From the NCBI GenBank assembly GCA_964532425.1, contig CAZHIA010000007.1:64008-128007 (forward strand): a DNA stretch of 64,000 nucleotides. Direction: 5' to 3'. This document shows positions 14,141 through 55,380 of this stretch, in pieces. The position numbers and the translations under genes are program-made. Below the pieces are notes generated by a model. The model was not told where the DNA came from and searched no databases. It saw only the letters and a list, made by a program, of their open reading frames with translations. The stretch comes from an uncultured Candidatus Saccharibacteria bacterium (GTDB lineage: Bacteria > Patescibacteriota > Doudnabacteria > UBA920). Every line of letters begins with the position of its first letter. The stretch's first letter is position 1.

Positions 14141-14182
14141 ATAGCCTGCGCACTCCCAAGAGGGGAGTGCGCTCTTTTAATT

Positions 14183-18513: not shown

Positions 18514-18960
18514 ATGCGCTGTCCAAACTGTCAAAATGAGGATACAAAGGTAATCGATTCGAGGCCGGTTGATGACGCCAGTGCCATACGGCGCCGGCGC
18601 CAGTGCGAAAAGTGCGAGTTCCGCTTTTCTACGTATGAGGAGATTGAAATTCTGGACCTGACCGTGGTCAAGAGGGACGAGACCAAAGAGCCTTATAGCC
18701 GGGAAAAGCTGGAACGGGGGATTAAGCGGGCCTTTGAGAAGCGCGAGCACAATGACCAAACCTTGAGAAAGCTTATTTCCGGCATTGAACAGGATATCCA
18801 GAAAAAAGCCAAGGATGGAGAGATTCGGAGCTCAGATATCGGTGACATTGTCATGCGGCGAATGAAACGGATCGACAAGGTGGCCTACATCCGTTTCGCC
18901 TCGGTCTACCGCTGCTTCGAGGACGTGGAAGAATTTAAGGCGGAACTGCAAAAACTGTGA
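18514..18960 (+). CDS. nrdR: transcriptional repressor NrdR
   Basis: It has an N-terminal zinc ribbon (MRCPNCQ...C..C) and an ATP-cone, and sits immediately upstream of the RNR gene. Confidence 0.85.
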   Translation: MRCPNCQNEDTKVIDSRPVDDASAIRRRRQCEKCEFRFSTYEEIEILDLTVVKRDETKEPYSREKLERGIKRAFEKREHNDQTLRKLISGIEQDIQKKAKDGEIRSSDIGDIVMRRMKRIDKVAYIRFASVYRCFEDVEEFKAELQKL

Positions 18961-19158
18961 TAGTAATCTCGAATCCGCCAGCTGGCGGAACAAATGCAGC
19001 GCAAATATTCGAATTGCTATTGGCCGTATATCCAATCAAGAGCGGTGTGTAGTATTAGTATATTTGTGTTTGATTCGTTATATTAGAGAATACTCCTTTA
19101 CATTAAGTTAACAACCATTAACCATCCATCATCAGGTGGAATAACAAGAGAGCAATCC

Positions 19159-24989: not shown

Positions 24990-25616
24990 ATGTCAACCCT
25001 TCAGAGAAAACCAAAAAAAGATAAACCGGTCATAGCCAAAAAAGGTCTGGTCATCGCCTACATTGGCGACGGCAAGGGTAAGACCGGTGCGGCCATGGGA
25101 CTAGCCGTGCGCGCGGCCGGTAGCGGCATGGATGTCTGCATTTTGCAATTCGTAAAATCCAAAAAACCCGAAGGCCGGAATCTGCAACCCGGCGAATGGC
25201 CGCTCTCGAATGAAATCGTTTTTTTTGACGGCATCTCGGGCAGCGGCAAGATCGGCTGCATTGATACCGAGCAGTTAGGGGAGGGGTTCGTTGGAATCTT
25301 GGGCGACAAAAAAGACCGCGACGTACACATCCGCGAAGCCCTCAGAGGGTTGGAATCGGCCCGTCAACTGATATTGTCAGGTAAGTACCAACTGATTATT
25401 TTGGATGAAATTATCTCCGCCCTGGAGCTGAATTTGCTTACCGAGCAGGATATTGTCGAGCTGATCAAAATCAAGCCTGAGATGCTTCACCTCTGTATGA
25501 CCGGCCATAAAAAATTCAAAAAGATTATTGCAGCCTGCGACCTGGTCACGGAAATGAAGATGATCAAGCATCCGTACTACGAGGGAGTGCTGGCGCAGCG
25601 GGGAATAGACTATTAA
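24990..25616 (+). CDS. cobO: cob(I)yrinic acid a,c-diamide adenosyltransferase (CobA/CobO/BtuR family)
   Basis: It has the GLVIAYIGDGKGKTGAAMGLAVRAAGSGM P-loop region and YQLIILDEI motif typical of ATP:corrinoid adenosyltransferase. Confidence 0.75.
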   Translation: MSTLQRKPKKDKPVIAKKGLVIAYIGDGKGKTGAAMGLAVRAAGSGMDVCILQFVKSKKPEGRNLQPGEWPLSNEIVFFDGISGSGKIGCIDTEQLGEGFVGILGDKKDRDVHIREALRGLESARQLILSGKYQLIILDEIISALELNLLTEQDIVELIKIKPEMLHLCMTGHKKFKKIIAACDLVTEMKMIKHPYYEGVLAQRGIDY

Positions 25617-25744
25617 AAATTGAACAAAATTGATCAAAATTAAATAAAATTGACAAAATTGCCACTGCATAGTTTCGTGGCGTCACTTGTCAAAATTATT
25701 TATCGACATTAGAATACAAGGGTAAATTAAAAAGAAAGAAGACA

Positions 25745-29499: not shown

Positions 29500-30288
29500 A
29501 TGTCAAACAAAACTCTCAGCATCATCGTAGCTGTGATTGTTATCCTGTTCGCAGGAGGAATATACGGCTACCGCGTCTATTCGAACAGGCAGGCAGCGGA
29601 AGTTGAAGGAACCGAACCGGAAGCCAGTACTCCACCCGGATCGACGGAACTCCAACAAGCGGCCCAGCAGCAAGCGACCACGACACCTCAACAACCAACT
29701 AATCAACCAGCCATGAATCAGCCCACTGCCGGCAACTGCCAACGCAATTTTAATCCGGACACATTAAAGAATGCCAAAGTTGACATTGCCAATCGCACCG
29801 TCGAGATGGACATTAAAGATTTTGGCAAAGTCCAGGTGCAGCTGTACGACAAGGATGCACCTAAGACCGTGGAGAACTTTTTGCGGCTGACTAATGCCGG
29901 TTACTATAACTGCCTGACCTTCCACCGCATCGCCCAGGACTTCGTCATTCAAGGAGGGGACCCGACCGGAACCGGTTCGGGAGGGGATAGCGCCTTCGGC
30001 GGTGAATTTGCGGACGAGCTAAATCCGGAAACGCCGAGCTATAAAGCCGGGTATGTTAAAGGCGTCCTGGCCATGGCTAATCGCGGACCGAATACCAACA
30101 CCAGCCAGTTCTTCATTATGCTAGCAGACCGTCCGTTGCCGAATAACTATACTATTTTCGGAAAAGTCATAGCCGGTCAGGATGTCGTCGACAAGATCGG
30201 CAAAGTGCCGGTTACTCCTCAAATGGGTCCGACCGATGGAGCTCCCAAAGTTCCGGTGGTTATGGAGAGTGTTAAGATTATCAAGTAG
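29500..30288 (+). CDS. peptidyl-prolyl cis-trans isomerase, cyclophilin type, with N-terminal membrane anchor
   Basis: It has the FHRIAQDFVIQGGDPTGTGSGG and SQFFIML cyclophilin motifs and an N-terminal TM helix. Confidence 0.85.
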   Translation: MSNKTLSIIVAVIVILFAGGIYGYRVYSNRQAAEVEGTEPEASTPPGSTELQQAAQQQATTTPQQPTNQPAMNQPTAGNCQRNFNPDTLKNAKVDIANRTVEMDIKDFGKVQVQLYDKDAPKTVENFLRLTNAGYYNCLTFHRIAQDFVIQGGDPTGTGSGGDSAFGGEFADELNPETPSYKAGYVKGVLAMANRGPNTNTSQFFIMLADRPLPNNYTIFGKVIAGQDVVDKIGKVPVTPQMGPTDGAPKVPVVMESVKIIK

Positions 30289-30379
30289 CATTTAACATTT
30301 AACACCTGACATTTAACCTTTGACAGCTGCAATTGCAGGAAGTCAAATGTCACATGTCATATGTCAAAGGTTTTCTAAA
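30289..30379 (+). promoter_or_regulatory. conserved leader element, copy B (upstream of ndk)
   Basis: It has ACATTTAAC repeated three times, CCTTTGACA, the heptamers ATGTCAC ATGTCAT ATGTCA, and then GTCAAAGGTTTTCT before the ATG. CCTTTGAC and GTCAAAGG can pair. Confidence 0.5.
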
Positions 30380-37226: not shown

Positions 37227-37339
37227 GTCATTGCGAGCCCCGCCCTTTTTGCATCAAAAGGGTGGGGCGAAGCAATCTTTCCACATTGTGAAATAATAGA
37301 TTGCTTCGTTATTCGGATGCACTCATTCCTCGCAATGAC
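37227..37339. repeat. MITE-like element, same family
   Basis: It shows the same terminal and sub-terminal inverted-repeat architecture, GTCATTGCGAG...GAAGCAATC...GATTGCTTCG...CTCGCAATGAC, over 113 bp. Confidence 0.6.
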
Positions 37340-37370
37340 AGTTGTAGGGGCGGGTCTGTGACCCGCCCAA

Positions 37371-41990: not shown

Positions 41991-42017
41991 TTAGCAATCT
42001 GCTTGACAGAGTGCTAA
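41991..42017 (+). promoter_or_regulatory. CIRCE (HrcA operator) overlapping groES promoter
   Basis: The sequence TTAGCAATC-N9-GAGTGCTAA differs from the consensus TTAGCACTC-N9-GAGTGCTAA at one position. The TTGACA -35 (42003-42008) sits inside the spacer and TATAAT is at 42025-42030. Confidence 0.7.
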
Positions 42018-42116
42018 TGTGCGCTATAATACATTTTGAGATTACTCGATAAACAAGATAAGTAATTGCCGATGCCGCTAACATAAGCGGTCCATAGGCA
42101 CATCAGGAGAGATTGT

Positions 42117-42425: not shown

Positions 42426-42550
42426 CAATACATTCATCAAAATTCCAAATCACAAATCACAAATTCCAAATAAATTCCAAACTTCAAATTCAAATGAGTA
42501 AGCAGTTTTGGAGTTTGGAAATTGAAAATTATTTGTAATTTGATACTTGG
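42426..42550. repeat. CCAAAT/ATTTGG-rich inverted-repeat element (groES-groEL spacer)
   Basis: It reads AAATTCCAAATCACAAATCACAAATTCCAAATAAATTCCAAACTTCAAATTC...TTTGGAGTTTGGAAATTGAAAATTATTTGTAATTTGATACTTGGTACTTGGAATTTT. Confidence 0.45.
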
Positions 42551-42577
42551 TACTTGGAATTTTTCCGAAGGAATATT

Positions 42578-44221
42578 ATGGCGAAAATTATCAAATACGG
42601 TTATGAGGCCAAGCAGGCCATCAAGGCCGGCGTGGACAAGGCGGCGAACGTCGTCAAAGTTACTTTAGGTCCTACCGGTAAGACAGTCATTTTGGACAAA
42701 GGTTTCGGCAGCCCGTCCGTAACAGACGACGGCGTGACCGTGGCTAAAGATATTGAACTCGAAGACAAGTTTGAAAATGTCGGCGCCTCTCTCATTCAGG
42801 AAGTGGCCAATAAGACTAATGAAGAAGCTGGTGACGGTACGACCACGGCAACCGTGCTGGCCCAGAAGATGATCGAAGAGGCTTTCGGCGCCGTGGCGAT
42901 CAACTCTTCCCGCGCCAATGACATTAAGAAGGGGATGGACAAGGCTGTGTCTTTTGTAGTGGAAGAACTGCATAAAATGAAGAAAGACATCAAGGACCGC
43001 GGCGAGATTCAGCAGGTGGCGACCATTGCCTCGCTCGATCCGGAAGTCGGCAAACTTATTGCCGAGGCTATGGAAGAAGTTGGCCATGACGGCGTGATCA
43101 CGGTTGAGGAAGGCCAGACCATTGGACTCGAAAAGGAAGTGGTCAAAGGCATGCGCTTTGACAAGGGATTCGTTTCCCCGTACATGATGACCAACACCGA
43201 GCGCATGGAAGCCGTGTGGGAAGACCCGTTCATTTTAATTACTGATAAGAAAATTTCCAGCGTGCAGGATGTCCTGCCGCTGCTCGAAAAAGTCGCCCAG
43301 AGCGGCAAGAAGGATCTCGTTATTATTGCCGATGACGTGGAAGGTGAAGCTTTGGCAACATTCATCCTGAACAAGATCCGCGGCACGTTCAATGTCCTGG
43401 CCGTGAAAGCCCCGGGATTCGGCGACCGCAGGAAGGAAATGCTCCAGGACATTGCGGTCTTAACCGGCGGCGAAGTCATTACCGAAGATTTGGGACTTAA
43501 GCTGGATAAGTCTGAACTCTCCCAGCTTGGCCGCGCCCGCCGCGTAGTTGCGACCAAGGAACATACGACTATCATTGACGGTGCGGGCGACAAGAATGCC
43601 ATCGAGGGCCGCGTACAGCAGATCCGGAATGCCATCAAAGATTCCACTTCCGATTTTGACCGCGAGAAATTGCAGGAACGCATGGCCCGGCTGGCTGGCG
43701 GCGTGGGCGTCATTAAAGTCGGCGCCTTTACCGAGACCGAGATGAAAGCTAAAAAATTCAAGATCGAAGACGCGCTTAATGCCACCAAAGCTGCCGTGGA
43801 AGAGGGAATCATCCCGGGCGGCGGCGTGGCTTTGGCCAAGGTCGCTCCGAAGCTCGACGGTTTCGGCAAGGATCTGACTGACGGCGAGAAGGCCGGTGTC
43901 AAGGTCATCCGCAATTCCCTGGAAGCGCCGATCCGCCAGATCGCCATCAACTCCGGCGTGGAAATTACTCCTATCTTGAGCAAGATCCACAATTCCAGTG
44001 ATCCGAACGTGGGGTATAACTTTGCCACGTTGACCGAGGCTGACATGCTCAAAGAAGGCATTGTCGATCCGCTGAAGGTCGCGCGCTTGGCCCTGGAGAA
44101 CGCGGTGTCTATCGCGTCCACCCTGGTCACCAGCGAGGCGATCGTCGTCGACAAACCCGAACCCAAGACCCCGGCTGCCCCCGGCGGCCATATGGGCGGC
44201 ATGGGTGGGATGGATTACTAG
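42578..44221 (+). CDS. groL: chaperonin GroEL
   Basis: It shows AKIIKYG...[23 protein letters not shown] and a C-terminal GGM repeat. Confidence 0.9.
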
Positions 44222-44237
44222 AATACATTTCCGATAT

Positions 44238-44272
44238 GTAAGGCGCTTTTTTAAGCGCCTTACTTTTAATTT
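44238..44272 (+). terminator. intrinsic terminator after groEL
   Basis: The hairpin GTAAGGCGC-tttttt-AAGCGCCTTAC is followed by TTTTAATTT. Confidence 0.65.
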
Positions 44273-44308
44273 GTGCTATAATAAGACAAAAGTAACTAAT
44301 ATATTTAT

Positions 44309-44623
44309 ATGTTTTCCGAAAAACAATTACATGAAACGGCAGGGCCGTGGGATGCCCGCTTGGACGAAATGTATGAGGGTTTTGACCATGATCAAAATTT
44401 TACCCACCACTTTCCCTCCCAGGAAGAATTTGACCGGTTTGTGTCCCTGCAAGTGGCTGATTACATAAAAAATCATGATGCTGAGCACGTATCTAACCCT
44501 CCAGATGCAACACTCAACGCCGCTTTTGCTGCGGTGAGGGGGATGATTGCTACCATAGTCGAAACAGGCAAATTTCATCCGGACAGCGACGTGACCATGA
44601 CCCATTCCCAATCGACCCGGTAG
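44309..44623 (+). CDS. hypothetical protein
   Basis: It is a 104-aa ORF that follows an extended -10 TGTGCTATAAT. A bidirectional terminator lies downstream. Confidence 0.4.
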   Translation: MFSEKQLHETAGPWDARLDEMYEGFDHDQNFTHHFPSQEEFDRFVSLQVADYIKNHDAEHVSNPPDATLNAAFAAVRGMIATIVETGKFHPDSDVTMTHSQSTR

Positions 44624-44647
44624 GGTGTAGAAACATGTGCAAATTAT

Positions 44648-44689
44648 AAATGTCACAATGAGGATGCTCATTGTGACATTTTCGTTTTT
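44648..44689. terminator. bidirectional terminator
   Basis: The hairpin AAATGTCACAATGAG-gatg-CTCATTGTGACATTT has a perfect 15-bp stem and is followed by TCGTTTTT. Confidence 0.6.
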
Positions 44690-44972
44690 AGCTCGGAAGT
44701 GAAACTTTCTTGGCATGGGGGCTGGCTCCGGAGGCTGGAAGGGGAAGGTGGGCAATTTGCTGCCGGGCTTGCTCCCATTCCGAGAGCGGCATGGCAGCAA
44801 ATAACGGGTTGTTCTCTGCCTCGGTCAGCAGGTTGAAAATTTGCTCTTTGGTGGTGGCCAGCCAGCGGTGGCTTTTTCCGGAGATTCGGATCTTGATATA
44901 GACAAACTTCAGGGAAAGCCTTCCGAGCGGCAGCTTGAACGGTTGAAATACGATCGTGCTGTCCGCGGACAT
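44688..44972 (-). CDS. hypothetical protein
   Basis: It is a 94-aa ORF convergent with the previous gene. Confidence 0.35.
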   Translation of the reverse strand: MSADSTIVFQPFKLPLGRLSLKFVYIKIRISGKSHRWLATTKEQIFNLLTEAENNPLFAAMPLSEWEQARQQIAHLPLPASGASPHAKKVSLPS

Positions 44973-45067
44973 GGGTCCTCCTTAGTATCTTGTAATTTTA
45001 AATCGGGTCAGTCTCGTTGTCAATTAGCCGGTTTTTAAAAAATTTGTTATTATTATGGCATAATTAT

Positions 45068-46456
45068 ATGGCCGAGACTCTCCGATATTATGAATCGTTT
45101 CCGGACTTCTCTGTAATGAGAAAAGACCGGGACAGTGCGTATCCAGACGAACTGGAACTGGTTCCTTTGCGGCCTTTGGTCCACAATACAAGTCACGCAG
45201 AGCGGACACGTATCATGACTGCAGTGCTGGAAGCGGTCGCCAGTCTAAAGACCCGAGGAACGGCCGAACAGATACTGATCGGAATTTTTGAAAGAAATTC
45301 CAACGAGCAGACAATCTTACTGAGCCGGTGGGAAGATTCTCTTCTCAGAACTTTTCAGCACTTGCCACCCGATGCGGACATTGATAAGGAAGTGGCAACT
45401 GCGTTGGCTCCGCTTTCGGCGTACGTCCAGCGGTTTTACCATGAACACAAGCGGCATATTGAGCAACAGGCTCTGAATCGGGGTGTACAACCTCGAGAGC
45501 TAGCCCCTGCTGATTTTTTGGGAAGGATCACAACTCCCCAAGGTGTCATTAGTCCGCTCAAGTACATTCGGGCGCGCGATAGGGCATTCCCCTTGCAGCA
45601 GGAAAAAGGTGTTTACGAGAAGGGTGATCAGCATGCTTTTTATTTAAACGAGAGGCTCGATGCTGGCGATGCGGTGGACTTGGTAGAAGTAATTTATCAT
45701 CAGTCATCGGCTGGGATGGGTATCCGTGAAGTGCGATTGGTCCAGATTGCCTCGAGTGATATCCATGTTCAGGATAAAATAGAACAAGTCAGACAAAAGC
45801 ATCCGAGGCTGGTGGGAGAATGGGAGGGCAGGCTGGAACGGTTCAATGAAATGTATTTTCCGGAACTAAAATTTCCGGATCGCGCTGCGGAAGATACATA
45901 TTTTGACGAACAGCTATTATTGTTTGCAGAAACGCTAGAGACGATGAGCGAGTCTGAAGATCAGAATAAGCGTACTAAGAAATTTGAGAAACTGGTGAAC
46001 CGGATCGGTATGGCCTATGGCCTCCCCACTCAGCAGCTGCCGCTTGAAGCACGGGCACGCATCGGCTCGAGGGTGTTTTACGATTTTTTGATTACCGCTG
46101 TCCGTAACGACTTTTTTATCCATGAAATCGCAGACGCTATCAGCGAGGAGTTGAAGCATATACAAAAGAACTCTGATCGGGGCTATGCGGTGCGGCTCTA
46201 TATAGACCACCTCCAGGAATTGGTCGATCATGATGCTGTGACTTACAGTCCCCAAGTTGCCGAGCAGGTGAGAAACGTAACTGACCGCATCCGGGCTGAG
46301 TTCCCAAATCTTGATTGGCGCGGTTCCTATCCGCAGACAGTCAGTATTCCTAAATTCCGTTCGGTAGTTGCGGTGGCCGATAAAAAAACATTTTACAACC
46401 AAGAAATTCCGGTGTCGGGGAAGCCGGGTAAATATCTGGTGCACCGGATACATTAA
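45068..46456 (+). CDS. hypothetical protein
   Basis: It is a roughly 460-aa ORF with the start chosen at MAETLRYYE. No nuclease or transposase motifs were found. Confidence 0.45.
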   Translation: MAETLRYYESFPDFSVMRKDRDSAYPDELELVPLRPLVHNTSHAERTRIMTAVLEAVASLKTRGTAEQILIGIFERNSNEQTILLSRWEDSLLRTFQHLPPDADIDKEVATALAPLSAYVQRFYHEHKRHIEQQALNRGVQPRELAPADFLGRITTPQGVISPLKYIRARDRAFPLQQEKGVYEKGDQHAFYLNERLDAGDAVDLVEVIYHQSSAGMGIREVRLVQIASSDIHVQDKIEQVRQKHPRLVGEWEGRLERFNEMYFPELKFPDRAAEDTYFDEQLLLFAETLETMSESEDQNKRTKKFEKLVNRIGMAYGLPTQQLPLEARARIGSRVFYDFLITAVRNDFFIHEIADAISEELKHIQKNSDRGYAVRLYIDHLQELVDHDAVTYSPQVAEQVRNVTDRIRAEFPNLDWRGSYPQTVSIPKFRSVVAVADKKTFYNQEIPVSGKPGKYLVHRIH

Positions 46457-46524
46457 TCCTTGACCGTTATAGAACCCTCTGGTATACTTTGTCTTCGACC
46501 TAGTATAGCGGAGGACTAAATTAT

Positions 46525-46821
46525 ATGAGTGAAAAGATGGAATTAGGCTCAAAAGCCTATGAAGCGCCGGAAGGGTTAGATTCGGCGATGGGGGATCTGC
46601 GGCTTGTTCCGTTGCAACAATCGGGAGCAGATCGTGCCGAACAGTCTCCAGCCATTTGGGATCCTGCCGCTTTCCGTGTTTCTTTAAACGAATTTTTACC
46701 GCAGCTAGTACAAATCCGCCAGCAACGAAAGATGGGTTCTATTACCGGACTGCAGGCAGATGAGCGCACGAAGATGGTTTTAGATCAGGCGCGGGCTAGA
46801 TATCGGGAGCAACACTCATGA
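46525..46821 (+). CDS. hypothetical protein
   Basis: It is a 98-aa ORF with a GGAGGA RBS, and a terminator follows. Confidence 0.45.
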   Translation: MSEKMELGSKAYEAPEGLDSAMGDLRLVPLQQSGADRAEQSPAIWDPAAFRVSLNEFLPQLVQIRQQRKMGSITGLQADERTKMVLDQARARYREQHS

Positions 46822-46829
46822 CAAGCGAA

Positions 46830-46870
46830 AAATCGGGAAAAGGCGAAGCCTGACCCGATTTTTATTATAA
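46830..46870 (+). terminator. intrinsic terminator
   Basis: The hairpin AAAATCGGG...CCCGATTTT is followed by TATTAT. Confidence 0.55.
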
Positions 46871-46926
46871 TTTATGATTATTTATGGCTTAATTAAGCCA
46901 TATTTTCAGTATTGGCGGGATAACTC

Positions 46927-46955
46927 TTGACAAAAAACAGCTTTTGGTGTATACT
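46927..46955 (+). promoter_or_regulatory. consensus sigma70-type promoter with no downstream ORF
   Basis: It reads TTGACA, a 17-nt spacer, then TATACT, and is preceded by an AT-rich UP-like region and the palindrome TGGCTTAATTAAGCCA. Confidence 0.5.
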
Positions 46956-47728
46956 GTTGAGTTAAATAAAAAATTGTAGTTTAAATAACGCTCTTACCAA
47001 TCATATAGCTGTGCCTCGAATGTTTTACAGGAGACAATCGGGTGCACGGTTTACGTCCGGCACTGGTTTCTGTGAGTTCAGTATAAACCAGGTCAATTAT
47101 TTCGATTACTAGTTGGTATTTATGTTAGCTTGCAGAAACTAGTGCTGGACACCATCATGCTCCTAATAGGGCTTAAACCCTTTTGGGGGCGCGATAAAGC
47201 CGTGTATTCTATACAAGAATAACTTTTCCAGAGATTCTCCTGTATAAAATATACGGTTTTTTGTTTAGGAGTAATCTCTAATATACGAATCTAGCACAAA
47301 TATACGAATACAGCACACCATCATTTATTTCTTAGAGCGGCCAATAGCTATTTGAATATTTGCGCTGTATTAGCCATATTCGAGATCACTATAATTGTTT
47401 CCAGTATTCCGGATCGGAGAAGGTCAACTTTATGGGTCCGATACGACCCACCGCCTCATCTCTGATCCAGAGTGGTGGAAATAATATCAATGTTGTGTCA
47501 TTCCGGCCCCGGAGCCGGAATCCATGCTCCCTTATCGTTCCTTACTATTCACTAAGCTTTGTTTACTAAAATCCGTAGTTATCCGTAGATTGGCATTCAT
47601 TGGTAGATTTGTAAATTTTCTCTACCATCGTGGGCCTAACAGGAAGGCAAACATTTTAGGATCGAGACGATCCGTCGGCCTCATCCTTTTGCTTAGACCC
47701 ACAATGGTGGATGAAAATCTTCCTCTGT

Positions 47729-47790
47729 GTCATTCCGAACTTGTTTCGGAATCCAGAGAAATGGATCCTGAAATGAATTCAGGATGACAC
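47729..47790. repeat. MITE-like element variant (GTCATTCCGAAC...TCAGGATGAC)
   Basis: It contains paired hairpins, TTCCGAAC-ttgt-TTCGGAATCC and GGATCCTGAAATGAATTCAGGATGAC. Confidence 0.4.
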
Positions 47791-47923
47791 TATAGGTTCT
47801 TGTCTGTATTGCAGAACCGATTTAAGTCGGTTCTGCAATTCAGGGAAGGACGTAGTCCTGGCAAGGCCAGGACGCAGTGATCCGGAACTGAAGTGAACAC
47901 TACAAGCCACAGGAGGCTAACAA

Positions 47924-48733
47924 ATGTCATTCGGACACGAATCTCACGAAGGTTTCGGGGATTTCTTTTCCTCTCAACGGAAACCCAACGGCCGCGACTA
48001 CACCGGGTCCAACCCGGTAGCAGACGCGCTCCGCGAAGTTCTCTCGGGCCTCGGTGGTCCCGAGCTGGGTGCCACCCTCAAGGTGGGCGCCATCGCAAAG
48101 AAGAACGAAGATGATGAGGTCAAGACGGCGCTCTTCGAAGCCCTGAAAACCCGCGCCTCGCTGAAAACGATCACCGAGATCGGTGATCAGACTGTCAAAG
48201 AGTACGAGAAGGCCGTCGCCGAGCGCGACAAGACAATCGCCGAACGCGACAAGGCCATGGCGGCTCTGCGCCAGCAGAGTCGCGAGTTGCAGATCAAGCT
48301 CTCCAACGCTGATGCGGCCAAGATGGTCGCCGAGTCGAACGAGCGGTTTGCCAAATCGCAGCTTCAGGCAGCTCGTGACACGAGGGATCAGTACTGGGGT
48401 GAAATTTCCAACCTCACGGCGGAGATCGGCGAGATCGGCGAGCGCGAGCAGCGCTTGCTGCAACTGGTGAGCGAAATCAATGCCGCGCTTTCCGCCGGAG
48501 CTACGCTGACCCCTGAGGATATCGCCGGCGCGAAGGGTCGTGCGACGAACCTGAACTACAAAGGCAAGAAGTTCCTGAAGGTCAACGTGAAGCCGGCCCC
48601 GGCGCCGGAAGCACCGGCCGAGAACCCGGTCCCGCCGGCGGCAGATGCTGCCGCGCCCGTGAAGGAGACACCGGCACCTGAGAATCCGCTCGCCGGACTC
48701 GGGCCGGAAGGGCTCACCAACGGCGATTTCTAG
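47924..48733 (+). CDS. hypothetical coiled-coil protein with Pro/Ala-rich tail
   Basis: It has an AGGAGG RBS. The GC-rich coding region is bounded on both sides by ORF-free structured regions and by inverted CCACAATGGTGGAT motifs. Confidence 0.5.
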   Translation: MSFGHESHEGFGDFFSSQRKPNGRDYTGSNPVADALREVLSGLGGPELGATLKVGAIAKKNEDDEVKTALFEALKTRASLKTITEIGDQTVKEYEKAVAERDKTIAERDKAMAALRQQSRELQIKLSNADAAKMVAESNERFAKSQLQAARDTRDQYWGEISNLTAEIGEIGEREQRLLQLVSEINAALSAGATLTPEDIAGAKGRATNLNYKGKKFLKVNVKPAPAPEAPAENPVPPAADAAAPVKETPAPENPLAGLGPEGLTNGDF

Positions 48734-48778
48734 TCCGAATGTAACAATGAGAGTGGCACTGCCTAGCAGTGCCACTCT

Positions 48779-49761
48779 CAACCATCTAATTCACTATTTC
48801 TCTAATTCACTAATTTACTAGCTAGTTTGTTTCTTCCATCATGGGCCAGAGCAGAGAAGGTTAACCAAATTTGGGTCGCTATGACCCTTCGGCCTCGTCA
48901 CTGCTGTGACCCATAATGGTAGAAGTAAAACACAATTTTAGAAGGGAAGATTGCCGCGCTCGGATGCACCTGCCTACCGGCAGGCAGGCTCGCTCGCAAT
49001 GACATGTAAGACTTTGTCATTGCGAGGAGAAAAGGACTTTAACTTTTCGACGACTTGTCCGCTGTAGCCTTGGCGAAGGTGGAAGCAATCTTTCGGTGTC
49101 ATTCCGGAGACCACGAAGCGAAGCGGAGAGTCATCCGGAATCCATTCTCTATAGTTGCCATACTATTCACTAGTCACTGACCACTATTTTGTATCCACCA
49201 TTGTGGATCTAAGCACGGAAGGTAAAATTTTTATGTCGCCTGTGGCGGCACCGACCTCATCCGAATGCTTTGATTCACAATAGCGGATGCAATCCGCTGG
49301 AGCCAGCCTGCTGGGCCAGGCTCGCATTCATAAAATGAAAATAAAGAATAGAGAATAGCCCCTCCGCGCACCAGGAGGGGGTGGATCACCGGGACTCGAA
49401 CGAGTGACAACGAATCCATAAAGGACGATTCGAGGATCAAGGACCATACATGAGCGTGCATGGGGCGTTTAAGTCCCATAACCGAGCGGTGAAAGCTGCT
49501 CAAATATTTAACCCTGCCGGGCGGCGACAATTATCCCCGGCATAAAGCCCTGAAAAGCAGGAGGAGGAAAAAGGACATGCGCTACAAGTTTCGTTTATGA
49601 ATCTCTACGGGTCTAGACCGGGACTGACCCAACCGGTTGCTGGCTCCGGCGGGAGATCACGGCGTATCCAAAACCACGCGCTGGGCAAGCCTCGCTTGCC
49701 CTTCTTTCTGAGCTAGCCTATCTGTAATGTTTAGATAGGCAGCTGAGAAGGAAGGAGGATT
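48779..49761. other. ORF-free structured region (~1 kb) rich in family repeats
   Basis: No credible ORF was found. It contains REP and MITE family copies and the hairpins CCCCTCC...GGAGGGGG and GGGTCGCTATGACCC. It carries the inverted partner of CCACAATGGTGGAT, whose other copy is at 47700. Confidence 0.4.
48993..49150. repeat. composite of MITE-family termini (head-to-head CTCGCAATGAC/GTCATTGCGAG, then GTCATTCCGGAG...CATCCGGAATCC)
   Basis: The family motifs are juxtaposed, and it shares the CGCTGTAGCCTTGGCGAAGGTGGAAGCAATC block with the element at 50280-50310. Confidence 0.4.
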
Positions 49762-50007
49762 GTGAAGAAAGAGAAAAAAAGTGACGCTCCGAGAGAGAGG
49801 AGCGTTTGGGCGGCCCGTTACGGCCACCAAATCGAAAGGTTTGCGGGATCGGCTTTCCCTCGCCGGCGACGGCAGGATGAGCCATCAGAGTTCGAGAGTG
49901 AAGTGACTGCGGTCGAAGACCGGCATCTCTACGGAGCTCGCTCGAACCGACGCCCCTCGCTTGAGGAGCTCGAGAACCCCTTCGCGAATCTTAACCAGCC
50001 CCACTAG
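49762..50007 (+). CDS. hypothetical small charged protein
   Basis: It has a GTG start preceded by GAAGGAAGGAGG and is 81 aa. Confidence 0.4.
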   Translation: MKKEKKSDAPRERSVWAARYGHQIERFAGSAFPRRRRQDEPSEFESEVTAVEDRHLYGARSNRRPSLEELENPFANLNQPH

Positions 50008-50150
50008 GGCGCGCAGCGGGGGAGCCTTCCAAAAGCTCCCCCACATCACTTTGGGTTTCAAGGGTAAACATTTTATGGGTCGCTTTGACCCACCGGCACC
50101 ATTTGAAACTCAGTGTGATGCGGATGCATATTTAAAGATTTGTTTTATTT

Positions 50151-50238
50151 GTCATTGCGAGGGAGTGCATCCGACCGAAGCAATCTTTTATGGTAAAGAT
50201 TGCCACGCTCCTCGGCTGCACTCGGAGCTCGCAATGAC
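50151..50238. repeat. MITE-like element, same family
   Basis: It reads GTCATTGCGAGGGAGTGCATCCGACCGAAGCAATC...GCTGCACTCGGAGCTCGCAATGAC over 88 bp. Confidence 0.55.
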
Positions 50239-50449
50239 ATAGGGATGCAGTACTCTCCTGCAATATTAGGAGGAGTGGCTGCGACCTGTCCACCGTAGCC
50301 TCGGCGAAGGCGGGAGCAGACGAGGTGGTAAATGTCCTTAACTCTGTGGCAAGAAGTTTGGCGGTAACTCGGTAATCCGGTTTATTGCCAAGCTCCTTCC
50401 CGCAAGGGAAAAAATCAAAGCTGTTCATTTACAAGGAGAATACACAAAA

Positions 50450-51151
50450 ATGGCCGCTCAGGCGACTGCTACTGCTCAAGCTCATTCCACTGCTCCGCGC
50501 AGTGGGAAACCGTTCAACCGCAAACCGGTGCCGGTCGCGGTCAGTCACGTGACTCTCACCTTGACCTTTCGCCAGAAAACCAAGAATGGTATCACGAAGG
50601 TTTTGGCCACGGCGAACGAGGGGAGTCGGGTAGTTACCTACTACCCGGACCGCAAAGAATCCAGGCCGCCGCTCAACGTGGCGATGGATTGCGAAGTCAT
50701 CGATCAAACGACCGCGAACGACGCGTTCGCGATCCGTATCGTGAAAGTCCTCGGCCCGTCCGAATCAGCGCGGCTCGCCGCGATCACCACATCCGCGGCT
50801 GCTGCAGCAAAGGCTACGATGGCAGCCATCAACCCTCAGCCCAAGGCTGAGGAGGTGGTGGACCAGCTCATCGCCGCGGCTATGCCCGCGGCTGCTGCGG
50901 AGCCCGTTCCGGTCGCCGAGAAAATCGTCGCGCCGGAAGTCCACGAGACGCCGGGTCAGCCCAAGGCTGCGGACCAGACGCCTGCTCCCGCGCCTGAGAA
51001 GACAACCGAGCCGTCCAAGCCCAAGAAGAAGTTCACAAGCAAAGACGGTAAGGTATTCAACGACAAGGGTCGTAGTCCGCGCGGCAAGCGCGGCGGGGCG
51101 AGTGCGGTGGACCCCATTCGGGCCGAAATGGAGGCCATGGGGTTGATGTAG
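50450..51151 (+). CDS. hypothetical Ala/Pro-rich protein
   Basis: It is a 233-aa ORF in a GC-rich region with a basic C-terminus. Confidence 0.45.
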   Translation: MAAQATATAQAHSTAPRSGKPFNRKPVPVAVSHVTLTLTFRQKTKNGITKVLATANEGSRVVTYYPDRKESRPPLNVAMDCEVIDQTTANDAFAIRIVKVLGPSESARLAAITTSAAAAAKATMAAINPQPKAEEVVDQLIAAAMPAAAAEPVPVAEKIVAPEVHETPGQPKAADQTPAPAPEKTTEPSKPKKKFTSKDGKVFNDKGRSPRGKRGGASAVDPIRAEMEAMGLM

Positions 51152-51498
51152 TGCAGGCCATTGGCCTGCTCTTGTGCGGACAATATAACAGGAGGAACGT
51201 TATGCGTTAAAAAGCCAGCGTAGTTCAAGAAACTACATTTGAATAAAACGGCGGCGAAAAGGTTTTACAGGTAGACCTTGCGGAAAGCCGGAAATTTCCG
51301 CTCAATATGATCTGTCCGTGGCGGGTAGCGCTGGGAGAGCATGCTCTCCCTTCTCTTCAGAGTTCATTTTCATCTTTTGGCGTCATTCTGAGCCGAGGCA
51401 TCCGAGGCGAAGAATCTCTCATCGAAAGTGAATTGTGAAGAGAAGGAATTCTCGTCAGACTTAGGGTCTGATTATATCGAATCAAGGAGGCATTTGCC

Positions 51499-52470
51499 AT
51501 GTCAGGTTTTACAGTTGAACGTTTCGTGCGTATTGCCCTAAACGGGGAGCGCATTATCGGCCTTTGTGGGCCAAGCGGTGAGCATGTCGAGTTAATACCG
51601 GTCACGGTGAACGGGAAAAAACAGCTGAAGGCTGTCTGGTCCCGTTGCCACCGGCTGGAGTATACGGAACCGGAAGCAACGCCGGTAACACTCGACAAGG
51701 TTCCCGAAGCGCTGCTTCCCCGACTGGGGTTCGTCCGGGTTGGGGAGAAAGACATCGTCGTCCAAATCGATTGGGAGTATGTAGAAGGCGTGGGACAAAC
51801 CTCTGTTTACCGGACGCACAAAGCCGGCGACTGGGTTCCGGCGCATGTCGCGAACTATGGGACTGTACGTCCCGACGGGAGCTCTTTTGTGAAGGAGACC
51901 CGTTTCCGGAACAGCCGGCCGTACGAGGTCAAACTTCGGGTCGACAACAAAGGCGGCGAGCCCGTCGTTGTCGATTATGAAGCCGAAAGGCGGAAGCAGG
52001 TGTTCGAAGTAAAGCGGGACACACTGCAGCAAGCCGGCTACATGCCTTGGCGGATCAATAAGCTGGTTGCAGCTCTTGGTCCCACCTACGCAGTGTACGC
52101 CCATGATTGGCTGTGCGACGCGGTGTGTGATTTGCTGCGTGATGGGTTCGAAGACCCGCAACGGCAGCTGCAGTCTGCATTGCGTCGGGCGCTGGCCTCG
52201 AAGGAGCAGAACCTTTTTGCTTCGGCAGTCGAACGGGTGTTGTACGATGACTTCAATTACATATATTTTGGTCATCGGAATCTCACCGATCTCGCCAAAG
52301 GCGCACTCTTGATTCTCGATACCGGCGGTTTGCCGGCTAAGACGGTCAAAGAGTATTGGCCATCTTTGGACCCGGAAGACTACAAGCTTTCGCAGGAGGC
52401 GCGTCGGCTCCAGCTCCGCAAAGAGCAGGATCATAAGGTTCTGCTGGATACGGTCCTCGGCACGGTATAA
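51499..52470 (+). CDS. hypothetical protein
   Basis: It is a 323-aa ORF with an AAGGAGG RBS 9 nt upstream. The overlapping minus-strand ORF was judged to be a shadow. Confidence 0.5.
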   Translation: MSGFTVERFVRIALNGERIIGLCGPSGEHVELIPVTVNGKKQLKAVWSRCHRLEYTEPEATPVTLDKVPEALLPRLGFVRVGEKDIVVQIDWEYVEGVGQTSVYRTHKAGDWVPAHVANYGTVRPDGSSFVKETRFRNSRPYEVKLRVDNKGGEPVVVDYEAERRKQVFEVKRDTLQQAGYMPWRINKLVAALGPTYAVYAHDWLCDAVCDLLRDGFEDPQRQLQSALRRALASKEQNLFASAVERVLYDDFNYIYFGHRNLTDLAKGALLILDTGGLPAKTVKEYWPSLDPEDYKLSQEARRLQLRKEQDHKVLLDTVLGTV

Positions 52471-52934
52471 AAACATGTGTGCGGTCACCTTCGGTGACCG
52501 CCTCTCTTCCGAACTCGTTTATGCGGGTTGGGAAGAGGGGATGATATTGATCGAAATTCTGTGCAGTGCAGGCCCGCTTCGCTATCGCTTGAGCGAGGCG
52601 AGCCCTTGGCCTGCTCCCCGTGTCATTGCGATTTTAGAGGTAAATTCCCATGATGAAGCGATCTAAACCTCGTGTTAGGTAAGATTGCTTCGTCGTTCGG
52701 CTGCACTCACTTCTCGCAATGACAAACAGCGGGTAATGTAGTGCAGGTCCTCTGACTACGCACAAGGCTACGTCGTACTAGTCGGCCTGCCAGTGTAGGG
52801 GCGGATAGTATCCGCCCGAAAGAAGGGAAGATAATATCTTCCCCTTACATAACGCAATAGATTTATTGCCAGAATTGAAAACTTAAAGAATTGAGTTTAT
52901 AATTCTGTCAGTATATAAACCTGTAGGGGGATTC

Positions 52935-53111
52935 ATGGGAAGTTTTTTTTCGCAGTACTTAGAAGAGCGGCGCTTGTATAAGCGCCAACGGCAGATTGAT
53001 CAAAACTTGGGCGTGTCACGCTCCTGGATCGGACTGTCCGGCTGGATAGTCCGAGGCGGGTATGTCGCATTTCTCGCCTTGATGTTTCTCTGGATCTATA
53101 CGAGGAGGTAG
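52935..53111 (+). CDS. putative small membrane protein (58 aa)
   Basis: It has an AGGGGGATT RBS and a C-terminal TM helix. It is the first of three tightly packed mini-ORFs. Confidence 0.3.
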   Translation: MGSFFSQYLEERRLYKRQRQIDQNLGVSRSWIGLSGWIVRGGYVAFLALMFLWIYTRR

Positions 53112-53115
53112 TTGA

Positions 53116-53262
53116 ATGCTTATTGTAGCCGGAATTAGTCTGGCTTTGCTCATCTCAATAATCTCCGTGAGAGCGGCCTTCTTCCCTTCGTCTGAGCCGG
53201 GTCAAACGGATGACTCTAATGATCAGCCCGAATTTCCCGCTGTGTGGAAGAGTGAGTCATGA
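53116..53262 (+). CDS. putative small membrane protein (48 aa)
   Basis: It has a GAGGAGGT RBS and an N-terminal TM helix. Confidence 0.3.
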   Translation: MLIVAGISLALLISIISVRAAFFPSSEPGQTDDSNDQPEFPAVWKSES

Positions 53263-53405
53263 CCTGGGTGGACGCTCTCGTGCAGACCCTTGCCGGGTTT
53301 GCATTCTTCTTCGGTTCCATCTTCCTCCCGCCGCTGCTTGCGGTTAGCTACATCAAGTGGCGGGAGCACCGCGAACGAAAACACGAATCCGAAAAGGGGA
53401 CATGA
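53259..53405 (+). CDS. putative small membrane protein (48 aa)
   Basis: It has an ATGA start/stop overlap with the previous mini-ORF, which suggests translational coupling. A TM helix is present. Confidence 0.3.
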   Translation: MTWVDALVQTLAGFAFFFGSIFLPPLLAVSYIKWREHRERKHESEKGT

Positions 53406-53638
53406 ACCTTACGTCTCCTTTTCCCCTCTAACCTGTCGGCGATGTGCTGATACGTACGTAATGGGGCAACCCTAGCCGTATTTACCAGCATCCTGTCTCG
53501 CCGGCGGGTTTGAGGGAATGACTATTGAACAAAATTAAATAAAATTAATTAAAATTAAGTAAAATTGGAACGCAAGGGCTGCTCAGAGCAAGTTCAATAT
53601 TGTAATATACAAGTCTTCCGATATGGGAAGTCTTTTTT

Positions 53639-53762
53639 ATTTGCGACGTAGAGCGAGGAGGTGGAAGCTTGCTTTCAATTTCCGAGCCGAGGAGCAAATA
53701 TTTATAATATTTGCGACGTAGAGCGAGGAAATGGAATCAAAATTCCAATTTCCGAGCCGAGC
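53639..53762 (+). repeat. tandem duplication of a ~54-bp unit (period 70)
   Basis: ATTTGCGACGTAGAGCGAGGA...CAATTTCCGAGCCGAG occurs twice, at 53639-53692 and 53709-53762. There are only two copies and the spacers differ, so it is not CRISPR-like. Confidence 0.5.
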
Positions 53763-53985
53763 CTGCCTGCCCCGGCACCATCATATGGTGCTCGGGCCTG
53801 CCGGTAGGCAGGGAGCAAATATAGGTTCAATTTCTTGGCAGCTTGCAGTATGGAACCTCTATTTTGTCCACTTTGACAACCCTAACTTTAGGGAATACAA
53901 TAGGCCTATAGTTTCCAGCTTGTCGCTGGCTGCTGTGTCCTCGGCAGTCAACATCCAGGCTTGGAAAGCCACCAGGAGGAAGTGA

Positions 53986-54492
53986 ATGAAGCATTATTTT
54001 GATCCGGATGAACGTCCGGATTGCAATGACCCACAGTATGATGAGCCAGATGTTTTGGCGACTGAATCGAACCGTAACGGTGCCGGCAAAAAAACCGCCA
54101 CGATCAAACCGAAGAAACACGTGATGATCGTGAACGGAGAGCGGGTGCCGAAACGGGTGGTGAGATTCCTCGCTCAAACAGCTCCGGCGGAACTGGACCA
54201 GTTGAGTCCTTTTGACCTCCAGGCACTGCTTGCGTGCCGCAACTGCGATCCTCCCCAGGATCCGGGTACCGATCTGTTCGACAATGCACCGCTGGTACCG
54301 CTTGATGAGATTGAAGAGGGTTCTGGGACCCGGTCTCACATACAGCGCGCATTGCCGGATCTGGCAGACATCGAAGGCATGACAAACTTCGAGGAAGACC
54401 CGGTGGGTCAGTTTGAAGAGGCCATCCCTCATACAGCGGGGGAGCGTGAACTTGGATTGTGGCCCAATTCGATCCACTTCACAACGGCTTAG
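53986..54492 (+). CDS. hypothetical acidic protein
   Basis: It is a 168-aa ORF with an AGGAGGAAG RBS and has no C-terminal CxxC pairs. Confidence 0.45.
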   Translation: MKHYFDPDERPDCNDPQYDEPDVLATESNRNGAGKKTATIKPKKHVMIVNGERVPKRVVRFLAQTAPAELDQLSPFDLQALLACRNCDPPQDPGTDLFDNAPLVPLDEIEEGSGTRSHIQRALPDLADIEGMTNFEEDPVGQFEEAIPHTAGERELGLWPNSIHFTTA

Positions 54493-54636
54493 CTGATGTT
54501 GTGGCGGTAACCGGATTTCGTCCGGTTGCCGCCGTATTTTAATTTGACGCCAGGCGGCAATTACGATATAATGCGTACAGTTTGCAATCTGACTTATCAT
54601 TTTGCATTTTTAACTTTTAACTTTTCTCTGATCACT

Positions 54637-54807
54637 ATGGGAGTTCCCAAGAAGCATAAGACCAGAAGCGGTCGCGACCAGCGGCGCAGCCATCATGCCT
54701 TGAAAGCCACCAGTTTTGCCACTTGCAAGAACTGCGGCAGTGCAACCATGCCCCACCTTCCCTGTAAGAACTGCGGGCACTACAAAGGCAGAAAAGTCAC
54801 GAAATAA
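54637..54807 (+). CDS. rpmF: 50S ribosomal protein bL32
   Basis: It is 56 aa and shows KKHKTRSGRDQRRSHHAL...C.NCG......CKNCGHYKGRKV. Confidence 0.8.
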   Translation: MGVPKKHKTRSGRDQRRSHHALKATSFATCKNCGSATMPHLPCKNCGHYKGRKVTK

Positions 54808-54891
54808 GATAAACATTTGACAATTAACCTTTGACATTTGACCACTGTGATCGAGTTACATGTCACATGTCAAAGGTCAAAGGTTTTCTTT
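54808..54891 (+). promoter_or_regulatory. conserved leader element, copy C (upstream of nusB)
   Basis: It has ACATTTGACA, CCTTTGACATTTGACC, ATGTCACATGTCA and GTCAAAGGTCAAAGGTTTTCT before the ATG. Its architecture matches copies A and B. Confidence 0.5.
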
Positions 54892-55380
54892 ATGGCCAAT
54901 CGCCACATGTGCCGCACTATCGCCATGCAGTCCCTGTTCGAGTGGGACTTCAAAGGCAAAAAGGACGATCTCAAAGAGATCATCGATAACAATTTGGAAC
55001 AATTCGGTTCCGGTCTCGATGACGCGGCCTTTGCGTATGAGCTGGCCCAGGGCGTGGCGGGAAAGATTACTGACATCGACGCACTCATTACCAAGTACGC
55101 ACCCGAGTGGCCTATTGACCAAATCACTCTCGTTGATCGCAACGTACTGCGCATTGGCATTTTTGAACTGATGTTCCTGAAAGACGTACCTCCTAAAGTA
55201 GCCATCAACGAAGCTGTGGAGATAGCTAAAGCCTTCGGGGGAGAGAATAGCGGCAAGTTCTTAAACGGCGTTCTTGGCAGTCTCTATAAAACCTTGGATC
55301 CGGAAGAGAGTAAACCCAAGGAACCTCCGACCCCGGACATTTCAACCACTGATGTCGCCAACGACCAGTCAATATCGTAA
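54892..55380 (+). CDS. nusB: transcription antitermination factor NusB
   Basis: It shows R.ARE.A.Q.L...[32 protein letters not shown] and KFLNGVLG. The start follows the conserved leader element. Confidence 0.8.

Follow-up and report, generated by a model that had tools for sequence, protein, structure and literature searches.

RsaE/RoxS and 6C RNA of Gram-positive bacteria each have their own sigma70 promoter, a conserved hairpin and a terminator hairpin, and contain no open reading frame (ORF). 6S RNA (ssrS) is a single rod with a central bubble and paired ends, and riboswitch and attenuator leaders place a promoter, a structured domain and a terminator in that order. The Patescibacteria (candidate phyla radiation, CPR) are a very large and almost entirely uncultured group with tiny genomes, whose noncoding RNA (ncRNA) content, apart from rRNA, tRNA and the universal RNAs, is almost wholly unexplored. 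Here we describe a 64,000-nt stretch of DNA from one such bacterium (contig CAZHIA010000007.1, positions 64,008 to 128,007; hereafter the window, in whose coordinates all positions are given), and in it an element on the plus strand at 46961–47262, RNA-1, that likewise runs from a sigma70-type promoter to a terminator hairpin. RNA-1 is very probably a genuine conserved structured RNA gene. The favoured reading as a whole, which we hold at a probability of roughly 45%, is that it is a single-copy structured ncRNA gene of one clade of Patescibacteria, and that its product acts in trans.

The RNA-1 unit and its homologues

RNA-1 lies in a segment (46822–47923) that holds short ORFs only, the longest being 47524–47787 (87 amino acids, aa) and 47360–47569 (69 aa). 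An earlier interpretation made from the letters of the window alone (the sequence-only reading) had proposed a near-textbook TTGACA-17-TATACT promoter driving an ORF-free, highly structured region of about 1 kb in an otherwise gene-dense genome. The promoter holds up well, with TTGACA at 46927–46932 and TATACT at 46950–46955 on the plus strand separated by a 17-nt spacer; it matches at 11 of 12 positions and is the top-scoring site across 46300–50000. The lack of ORFs is essentially right too, there being nothing longer than 87 aa between 46822 and 47923, and a high degree of structure is confirmed for 46962–47270, where the minimum free energy (MFE) is −116.9 kcal/mol against −69.2 ± 4.7 for dinucleotide shuffles (z = −10.2; 0/100 shuffles as good). 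Two parts of the proposal need amending. Only the first ~300 nt (46961–47262) can be kept as an ncRNA unit, in keeping with the transcript of roughly 300 nt from near 46962 that the sequence-only reading had predicted, the other ~650 nt being a mosaic and not one RNA, and the genome is not uniformly gene-dense, with several ORF-poor, repeat-filled stretches of 0.7–1.4 kb (e.g. 48734–49761 and 52471–53826). The 87-aa ORF was called automatically as a gene on an identical public Logan contig (L001:5601–5864), has no recorded Pfam hit, overlaps an e-element and a palindrome (both described below), and is probably a false gene call. Upstream of RNA-1 there is a 98-aa ORF (46525–46821) with its own promoter-like site, and because a terminator-like hairpin stands between this gene and the RNA-1 promoter, the RNA-1 unit is separate from it. 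The features of the unit are as follows.

46883–46910, plus strand: terminator-like hairpin (46883–46902) and T-run of the 98-aa gene, TATGGCTTAATTAAGCCATA TTTTCAG
46927–46955, plus strand: sigma70-type promoter, TTGACA, 17 nt, TATACT (11/12), conserved in homologues
46961–47262, plus strand: RNA-1, probable conserved structured ncRNA gene from predicted 5′ end to end of the U-tract, ~300 nt (from folds, homologues and covariance models)
46961–46989, plus strand: P1, 5′-terminal hairpin of GUUA...UAAC type, alike in independent MFE folds of the window and of homologues
46989–47006, plus strand: A/U-rich single-stranded linker, reading CGCUCUUACCAAUCAUAUAG here and ..CAUUAACAAUCAAAUA.. in relatives
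47007–47051, plus strand: P2 hairpin, with conserved UUUUACAGGAGA(A) in its apical part at 47023–47034 (from MFE folds and alignment)
47055–47150, plus strand: P3, long helix, a ~40-bp hairpin in the window (from covariation; G·U pairs on the plus strand)
47157–47192, plus strand: P4, core hairpin AUGCUCCUAAU-[variable apical hairpin]-UUGGGGGCGC, in which three U·G wobbles are fixed (from homologue alignment)
47193–47198, plus strand: spacer GAUAAA between P4 and P5
47199–47262, plus strand: P5, long terminator hairpin, conserved in its inner stem (ACAAGAAU/AUUCU-CC-UGU), and U6 tract at 47257–47262

The DNA of the window is also present on two Logan metagenome contigs, and SRR11567520 and SRR11567528 contain the genome. 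Its GroEL (42554–44221) is 72–80% identical to the GroEL proteins of several metagenome-assembled genomes of Patescibacteria (L003–L007) and no more than 66% identical to those of other Patescibacteria; among the related records, L006 and L080 carry the label Candidatus Doudnabacteria. In a sensitive blastn comparison of 44222–50450 with these GroEL loci, the only matching segment is 47135–47266 (in L003 and L005), together with the promoter region in L005. Both matches sit just downstream of groEL, and in both genomes the layout is a TTGACA-17-TATAAT-type promoter, a variable 5′ part, the P4 motif, and a long hairpin with a U-tract. With a covariance model built on the 3′ part of RNA-1, L004, L006, L007 and L080 are recovered as well, and a pattern scan of metagenomes (ATGCTCCTRATN{8,22}TTGGGGGCRC) gave 48 loci, about 37 of which are true homologues with full context, the remaining 11 being coding or GC-rich sequence that is unrelated. 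The search of related genomes suggested by the sequence-only reading thus yields about 40 homologues, from six related genomes and ~37 metagenome contigs, and what the relatives carry at this place is not a protein-coding gene of which the window could hold a decayed copy but a homologous noncoding unit with its own promoter and terminator.

The position and the two ends of the unit are conserved. groEL precedes RNA-1 on the same strand wherever the flank of a homologue locus is long enough, except for the near-identical L084 and L090, in which there is no groEL within about 2.2 kb upstream of RNA-1; nusB (54892–55335 in the window) lies downstream on the same strand, 0.3–7.6 kb away, in every locus in which nusB was detected. 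Of the 39 homologues with enough upstream sequence (two further ones are too short to judge), 37 have TTGACA-17-TAnnnT at 11–12 of 12 positions, 23–290 nt upstream of the core, and the remaining two have no such site within the 330 nt scanned. Nearly all homologues end in a hairpin followed by a run of U5–7. A covariance model (R3) has exactly one match, on the plus strand, in each related genome locus, and none within 10 kb of groEL in the Patescibacteria whose GroEL is no more than 66% identical. We found no Rfam RNA gene downstream of groEL in these more distant Patescibacteria, no second copy of RNA-1 within the 64-kb window, no instance of the RNA-1 pattern in IMG/VR and no blastn match to phage records.

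RNA-1 is not a member of a described family by any search that we made. With all 4227 covariance models of Rfam 15 at gathering thresholds, the whole window yields a tRNA-Gly only, and at E ≤ 5 over 46800–49800 there is only miRNA and snoRNA noise, none of it on RNA-1. ARAGORN likewise reports the tRNA-Gly alone and no tmRNA in the window. Rfam scans of the homologue loci (14 at gathering thresholds and eight at E ≤ 1) place nothing on RNA-1 or on the e-element, and the same scans do detect tRNAs and a SAM riboswitch. The conclusion reached by eye that the region is none of RNase P, tmRNA, SRP or 6S therefore stands, and the Rfam scan proposed with it assigns no family. RNA-1 is not described in the literature searched, a 2026 preprint about intergenic features included. 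We note that the SAM riboswitch (RF00162, 60.3 bits, L108:4766–4869) lies ~4 kb downstream of RNA-1, showing that standard riboswitches exist in the lineage and that the scans were working.

Fold and covariation of RNA-1

P2, P4 and P5 are recovered in independent MFE folds of 14 homologues, as are P1 and P3 in those members that have the corresponding parts. The size of RNA-1 ranges from 118 to 395 nt across the family (~300 nt in the window), and the smallest forms (e.g. L006) consist of a short 5′ tail, P4 and P5; because they carry little else, P4 and P5 are taken to be the universal functional core.

We consider the P3 helix to be the strongest structural evidence for RNA-1. In most relatives its strands are ..CCCCACGCCAAUCUUCA and UGAGGAUUGGUGUGGGG.., enclosing 40–140 variable nt, and in the window they are CCGGCACUGGUUUCUGU and GCAGAAACUAGUGCUGG, such that nearly every base is replaced relative to the relatives and all 17 pairs are kept. 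Among 12 distinct sequences in a fixed register both sides have changed in 16 of the 17 pairs, and 93% of cells are paired, a percentage that is biased upward because the strands were located by sequence anchors and partly by complementarity; the count of compensatory changes, being made in a fixed register, is not inflated by this selection. None of 500 shuffles reaches any of the five measures used, and slid controls are 44–50% paired.

The lower stem of P4 is formed by G-C, C-G, U·G, C-G, C-G, U·G, A-U/G·U, A-U and U-A pairs plus a closing U·G, and is invariant, while the apical hairpin above it covaries. The fixed U·G pairs of the hairpin (AUGCUCCUAAU...AUUGGGGGCGC) would become A·C mismatches on the opposite strand, and because the wobbles fit the plus strand only, we argue that the RNA is read from that strand. 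An AUG in P4, together with the small ORFs at 47011–47112 and 47130–47222, was considered as the start of a coding sequence and rejected, since neither frame nor length is conserved. As read from the homologue sequences, the frames that begin at this AUG stop after 5 to more than 50 codons and differ in phase, the apical loop varying in length from 35 to 37 nt, and L007 has GGG where the other homologues have the AUG. There is no conserved reading frame in RNA-1.

P5 was described in the sequence-only reading as a weak hairpin, which is not borne out: 47199–47257 forms an interrupted hairpin of ~24 bp, followed by UUUUUU at 47257–47262. For P5 alone pairing reaches 95.5%, and both sides have changed in six pairs; P4 and P5 jointly are 96.6% paired with eight such pairs. 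The sequence of P5, including a CC bulge, is conserved well beyond what a terminator requires. A long-range pairing between 47027 and 47250 had also been proposed, and the complementarity is real at slightly different coordinates, with UUUUACAGGAGA at 47023–47034 complementary to UCUCCUGUAUAAAA at 47237–47250. In terms of the helices, the complementary partners are ACAGGAGAA in the P2 loop and UUCUCCUGU in the 3′ strand of P5, the latter a segment that includes the CC bulge (UUCUCCUGUA at 47235–47244 in the window). Complementarity of at least 6–7 bp is kept in all 16 sequences that have P2. In L005 and L099 the changes that occur are absorbed by G·U pairs, and L089, L107 and L109, in which P5 has no CUCCUG, also have no ACAGGAG loop. 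This fits either a pseudoknot-type tertiary contact or an alternative pairing, and should be regarded as conserved complementarity rather than proven covariation.

A quite different explanation for the fold is that the region is debris of repeats or mobile elements, or the remnant of a decayed gene, that folds well by chance. The surroundings lend this some credence: the neighbouring ~3 kb are full of miniature inverted-repeat transposable elements (MITEs) and palindromes, long hairpins such as P3 are typical of mobile and repeat elements, and the genome has many ORF-poor gaps. However, RNA-1 was rejected as a MITE or dispersed repeat as it is present once in the window and once per related locus, in a fixed syntenic position and orientation, and its promoter and terminator are conserved across the homologues. 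Moreover, compensatory changes preserve the P3 pairing despite near-complete sequence replacement between the window and its relatives, and there is no protein homologue or conserved frame and no occurrence in viral contigs or phage records. For 46961–47262 we consider this explanation largely refuted and extremely improbable; for the MITE at 47265–47395 and the small palindromes described below it is correct.

Possible roles of RNA-1

We propose that RNA-1 would be transcribed from the near-consensus sigma70 promoter and released by the P5 hairpin and its U-tract, probably as a discrete and abundant RNA. The functional core would be the 3′ domain (P4 and P5), which is present in every member. 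In P4 an anti-Shine-Dalgarno-like GCUCCUAAU is predicted to pair with a Shine-Dalgarno-like AUUGGGGGC through the three fixed U·G wobbles, and P5 would contribute the terminator hairpin with its conserved CC bulge and apical stem. The accessory 5′ domain of the larger forms (P1, P2 and the long P3) may dock onto P5 through the P2 loop (ACAGGAGAA:UUCUCCUGU). Because both strands of P4 and much of P5 are conserved in sequence, recognition by a macromolecule is suggested, and our best guess is that RNA-1 acts in trans as a binding platform for a protein, the ribosome or the 30S subunit, and not as an mRNA leader. That RNA-1 interacts with the 30S subunit or an RNA-binding protein is a reasonable guess because P4 is a helix of the Shine-Dalgarno:anti-Shine-Dalgarno type (GGGGG/CUCCU), the P2 loop is AGGAG-like and there is a second CUCCU in P5. 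A trans-acting role is favoured because the alternative pairing leaves the base of the terminator alone, because the downstream genes are mutually unrelated, and because RNA-1 and these genes are set apart in the window by 660 nt of repeats and, further on, by a minus-strand ORF. We also considered pairing of the 5′ strand of P4 with the ribosome-binding sites of groES, groEL or other genes and rejected it, as the complement ATTAGGAGC is not enriched in the window (6 matches compared with 13 expected).

Several points count against this reading. Besides the upward bias in the pairing percentage of P3, the pairing of the lower P4 stem rests on energy and on the wobbles and not on covariation, because this stem never varies, and among the metagenome matches its invariance was imposed by the search pattern; L004, L007 and L080, found by covariance model and not by the pattern, do keep the P4 sequence with only G·U-compatible changes. 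The P2:P5 contact has almost no true covariation, and a change from AGGAG to AGGAA in several members is uncompensated. Finally, the next ORF in the small forms begins 99–144 nt past the core, that is 40–85 nt past the terminator, and several of these ORFs begin with signal-peptide-like sequence, a spacing that fits a leader equally well.

If RNA-1 were such a cis-acting leader or attenuator, its promoter would serve the downstream genes (variable ones, often for secreted proteins, and ancestrally nusB), and the conserved hairpins would set how much transcription passes P5; pairing of P2 with the 3′ strand of P5 could, for example, be switched by a factor, or by the 30S subunit, bound to the Shine-Dalgarno-like P2 loop or to P4. 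The layout of promoter, structured domain, intrinsic terminator and gene is what this predicts, nusB is directly next in L090, an uncharacterised ORF follows at +308 in L112, and the P2 loop is indeed complementary to part of the terminator hairpin. However, the loop pairs only with the 3′ strand of the upper P5 stem, and because the basal 9–10 bp next to the U-tract stay intact it would be a poor antiterminator. The conservation of the P5 sequence far exceeds the needs of a terminator, and the first downstream ORFs share no homology among themselves, conservation being limited to nusB and the genes past it. The terminator and the next ORF are 660 nt apart in the window, with a MITE, e-elements and palindromes between them and a minus-strand ORF before nusB, and plausible separate promoters are present downstream (e.g. 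TTGGCA-16-TAAATT at 47590–47617). We regard a leader function, which is the main competitor of the trans-acting reading, as unlikely, although well short of negligible.

The conserved downstream neighbour also raises the question of whether RNA-1 could be a Nus-factor (BoxA) element, similar to those of rRNA leaders, that recruits or titrates NusB and NusE. The linker at 46989–46997 in the window reads CGCUCUUAC, which is identical to the BoxA of lambda nutR. NusB, however, is encoded 0.3–7.6 kb away with unrelated genes between, and a perfect match to the lambda-like GYTCTTANNA is present in the window only and not in its relatives. NusB/E bind single-stranded BoxA, whereas a second candidate, the 5′ strand of P4 (UGCUCCUAAU), is locked in a stable hairpin. 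This strand resembles the BoxA consensus of the gamma-proteobacteria, GYUCUUUAANA, in which group BoxA-mediated autoregulation by Nus factors is widespread (PMC5725501). The 5′ regions of the homologues match GYTCTTTAANA or the lambda-like variant no better than shuffles do, with few exceptions, with the proviso that a gamma-proteobacterial consensus may not be that of this lineage, of which no rRNA leader lies in the loci analysed. A BoxA role seems quite improbable, and the trans-acting platform remains the reading that we prefer.

Downstream elements and comparison with known systems

The mosaic that follows RNA-1 consists of a MITE, two e-elements, palindromes and the 5′ region of a 269-aa gene. 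Its parts, together with the more distant e-element copies, are listed here.

47265–47395, plus strand: MITE-like repeat with inverted ends AGTAATCTCTAAT...ATTCGAGATCACT; a second copy is at 18952–19102 on the minus strand (74% over 152 nt)
47401–47478, plus strand: e-element copy 1, structured hairpin of ~85 nt (covariance model 53.3 bits, E 6e-11)
47495–47523, plus strand: small palindrome GTGTCATTCCGG...CCGGAATCC, 17 nt past e-element copy 1; three copies in the window, 0 expected by chance
47622–47710, plus strand: e-element copy 2 (covariance model 75.4 bits, E 6e-17)
47727–47754, plus strand: second copy of the small palindrome, 17 nt past e-element copy 2 (same palindrome scan)
47811–47848 (12-bp stem) and 47857–47877, plus strand: two perfect stem-loops in the 5′ region of the 269-aa ORF (start 47924)
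48833–48922, plus strand: e-element copy 3 (covariance model 68 bits)
49195–49286, plus strand: e-element copy 4 (covariance model 60.6 bits)
50043–50121, plus strand: e-element copy 5, more diverged (covariance model 42.5 bits, E 5e-8)

The direct repeats and the MITE copy reported in the sequence-only reading are both present, with AATATACGAAT occurring twice (47280–47317) inside the MITE, as are the two perfect stem-loops with small shifts of coordinates; no homologues of these stem-loops were found. The MITE is inserted between RNA-1 and the first e-element and is absent from the homologues, in which an e-element can directly follow the RNA-1 terminator. The small palindromes (GTGTCATTCCG...CGGAATCC, at 47495–47523 and 47727–47754) are confined to this region in all three of their copies in the window. 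Right after the first of them, 47516–47527 reads AUGCUCCCUUAU, which resembles the 5′ strand of P4, AUGCUCCUAAU; this may be a coincidence.

The e-element has an outer stem, CACAAUCGUGGGCCUAAG / CUUAGACCCACAAUUGUG, with two fixed C·A mismatches, conserved internal-loop motifs GAAGGCAAA and CGGCCUCAUC, and a variable inner hairpin. Across 16 sequences 89.5% of the positions are paired, 17 of 21 pairs have changed on both sides and 0/500 shuffles are as good. The covariance model finds a single copy in each of 20 large-form RNA-1 loci (e.g. L003:11768–11848, L085:862–945 and L127:913–996), none in the large-form loci L005, L089, L098, L100 and L109, none in the small-form loci, and none in the 64 kb beyond the five copies listed. 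Where found it is on the same strand as RNA-1 and 0–250 nt past the RNA-1 terminator. The strand on which it functions is not evident from folding, as the mean difference in MFE is ~1 kcal/mol with the minus strand favoured in 9 of 17 copies, and G·U pairs are present on the plus strand, but reading the opposite strand would turn the two conserved C·A mismatches into G·U pairs. Seven viral hits to the e-element pattern are chance matches, all of them rejected by the covariance models.

The closest likeness of the e-element is to integron attC sites, which are also imperfect hairpins of ~60–140 nt with structure conserved over sequence and with fixed unpaired bases, and here, as with attC, several copies in the same orientation are interleaved with orphan ORFs in a hypervariable interval. 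Unlike attC sites, the e-element does not keep RYYYAAC/GTTRRRY boxes, there being free covariation at the corresponding CCUAAG/CUUAG positions; no integrase or recombinase domain was found nearby with Pfam, PADLOC or PHROGs, and a single copy is present in most genomes. The stretch from RNA-1 to nusB (47263–54891 in the window) is hypervariable, spanning 7.6 kb here and 0.3–3 kb in relatives, and contains orphan ORFs, MITEs and e-elements. Its ORFs are not homologous between genomes and gave only weak coiled-coil noise with Pfam, PADLOC and PHROGs; for a 479-aa ORF upstream there is no detectable homologue. Because RNA-1 and the e-element, in those large forms that have it, are adjacent, co-oriented and border the hypervariable groEL–nusB interval, and because in this genome the e-element is multiplied five-fold and interleaved with ORFs, they might together constitute a previously unrecognised RNA-based system, a platform for cassette capture or cassette expression in CPR bacteria. 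The e-element could then be a structured site at which recombination takes place or a cassette is bounded, or a site of processing, and RNA-1 a guide, scaffold or regulator, with a logic that could be analogous to that of integrons and bridge-RNA systems, yet unrelated to them. We consider this improbable.

Other features of the window include a CIRCE-type operator, TTAGCAATC-N9-GAGTGCTAA, at 41991–42017, which overlaps the −35 hexamer TTGACA (42003–42008) of groES–groEL (−10 TATAAT at 42025–42030) and is a common kind of heat-shock control signal, of the HrcA type, here in a CPR genome. Short-period word repeats (e.g. ACATTTGACATGTAACATGTGAC, ATTGAACAAAATTGATCAAAATT and AAATTCCAAATCACAAATC) are present in many intergenic regions, often just upstream of genes (1120–1198, 30288–30376, 54813–54889; 25599–25658, 53514–53573; 10714–10754, 42440–42480); one is directly before nusB and another is between groES and groEL. 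Dispersed MITE-like palindromic repeats of the TGTCATTGCGAG...CTCGCAATGACA / AGATTGCTTCG type are found in ORF-poor gaps across the window, at 14181–14353, 37298–37340, 48993–49053, 50152–50239 and 52682–52724.

RNA-1 is unlikely to be dispensable because it is single-copy and has a consensus promoter, a covarying multi-helix fold, a hairpin invariant on both strands and a fixed place between housekeeping genes. Should it be confirmed, Rfam would gain a family, annotation of these genomes would improve at sites where an automatic caller puts a spurious ORF over the neighbouring elements, and there would be a concrete handle on regulation or ribonucleoprotein biology in organisms without many of the classical regulators. 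The e-element and the hot-spot of orphan genes that it borders are a second testable lead.

Among described RNAs, several share some part of this organization. We looked for a relationship to IS110-type bridge RNAs and to the omega RNAs of IscB/TnpB and rejected it, as the flanking ORFs have no such domain in Pfam, PADLOC or PHROGs and the locus is syntenic between housekeeping genes. The element order of riboswitch and attenuator leaders is that of RNA-1, and an upstream loop complementary to part of the terminator is a further resemblance; unlike such leaders, RNA-1 has no conserved class of downstream gene, the base of its terminator is untouched and no Rfam riboswitch model matches it. With the leaders of rRNA operons and lambda nut, it shares a strong promoter, a 5′ hairpin, a U/A-rich single-stranded stretch (CGCUCUUAC here) and a nusB gene nearby, but the family does not keep the BoxA consensus, and its unit closes with a terminator and is not followed by rRNA.

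A likeness to 6S RNA would make RNA-1 a housekeeping-type RNA, strongly transcribed, poorly conserved in sequence, 150–300 nt long and of a kind often missed by homology searches. However, where 6S RNA is one rod, the MFE folds of the 14 homologues consist of three to five separate hairpins, the minimal forms are two hairpins of ~118 nt, with this two-hairpin 3′ domain the sole universal part, and the size varies more than three-fold; the Rfam 6S models have no match at E ≤ 1–5 in the window region or the homologues. RsaE/RoxS and 6C correspond more closely in kind, as RNA-1 has the same promoter, hairpin and terminator without an ORF, is single-copy and syntenic as independently transcribed small RNAs such as these are, and carries pyrimidine-rich CUCCU motifs that could pair with Shine-Dalgarno regions as in RNAs of the RsaE/RoxS type. 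It has no sequence or covariance-model similarity to them, its CUCCU motifs are inside stems and not in loops, and in the large forms several further helices make up a 5′ domain of up to ~290 nt that probably engages in a long-range contact, an unusual arrangement among small RNAs of the seed type. RNA-1 is thus in kind a promoter-to-terminator structured small RNA of bacteria, and as a family it appears to be new.

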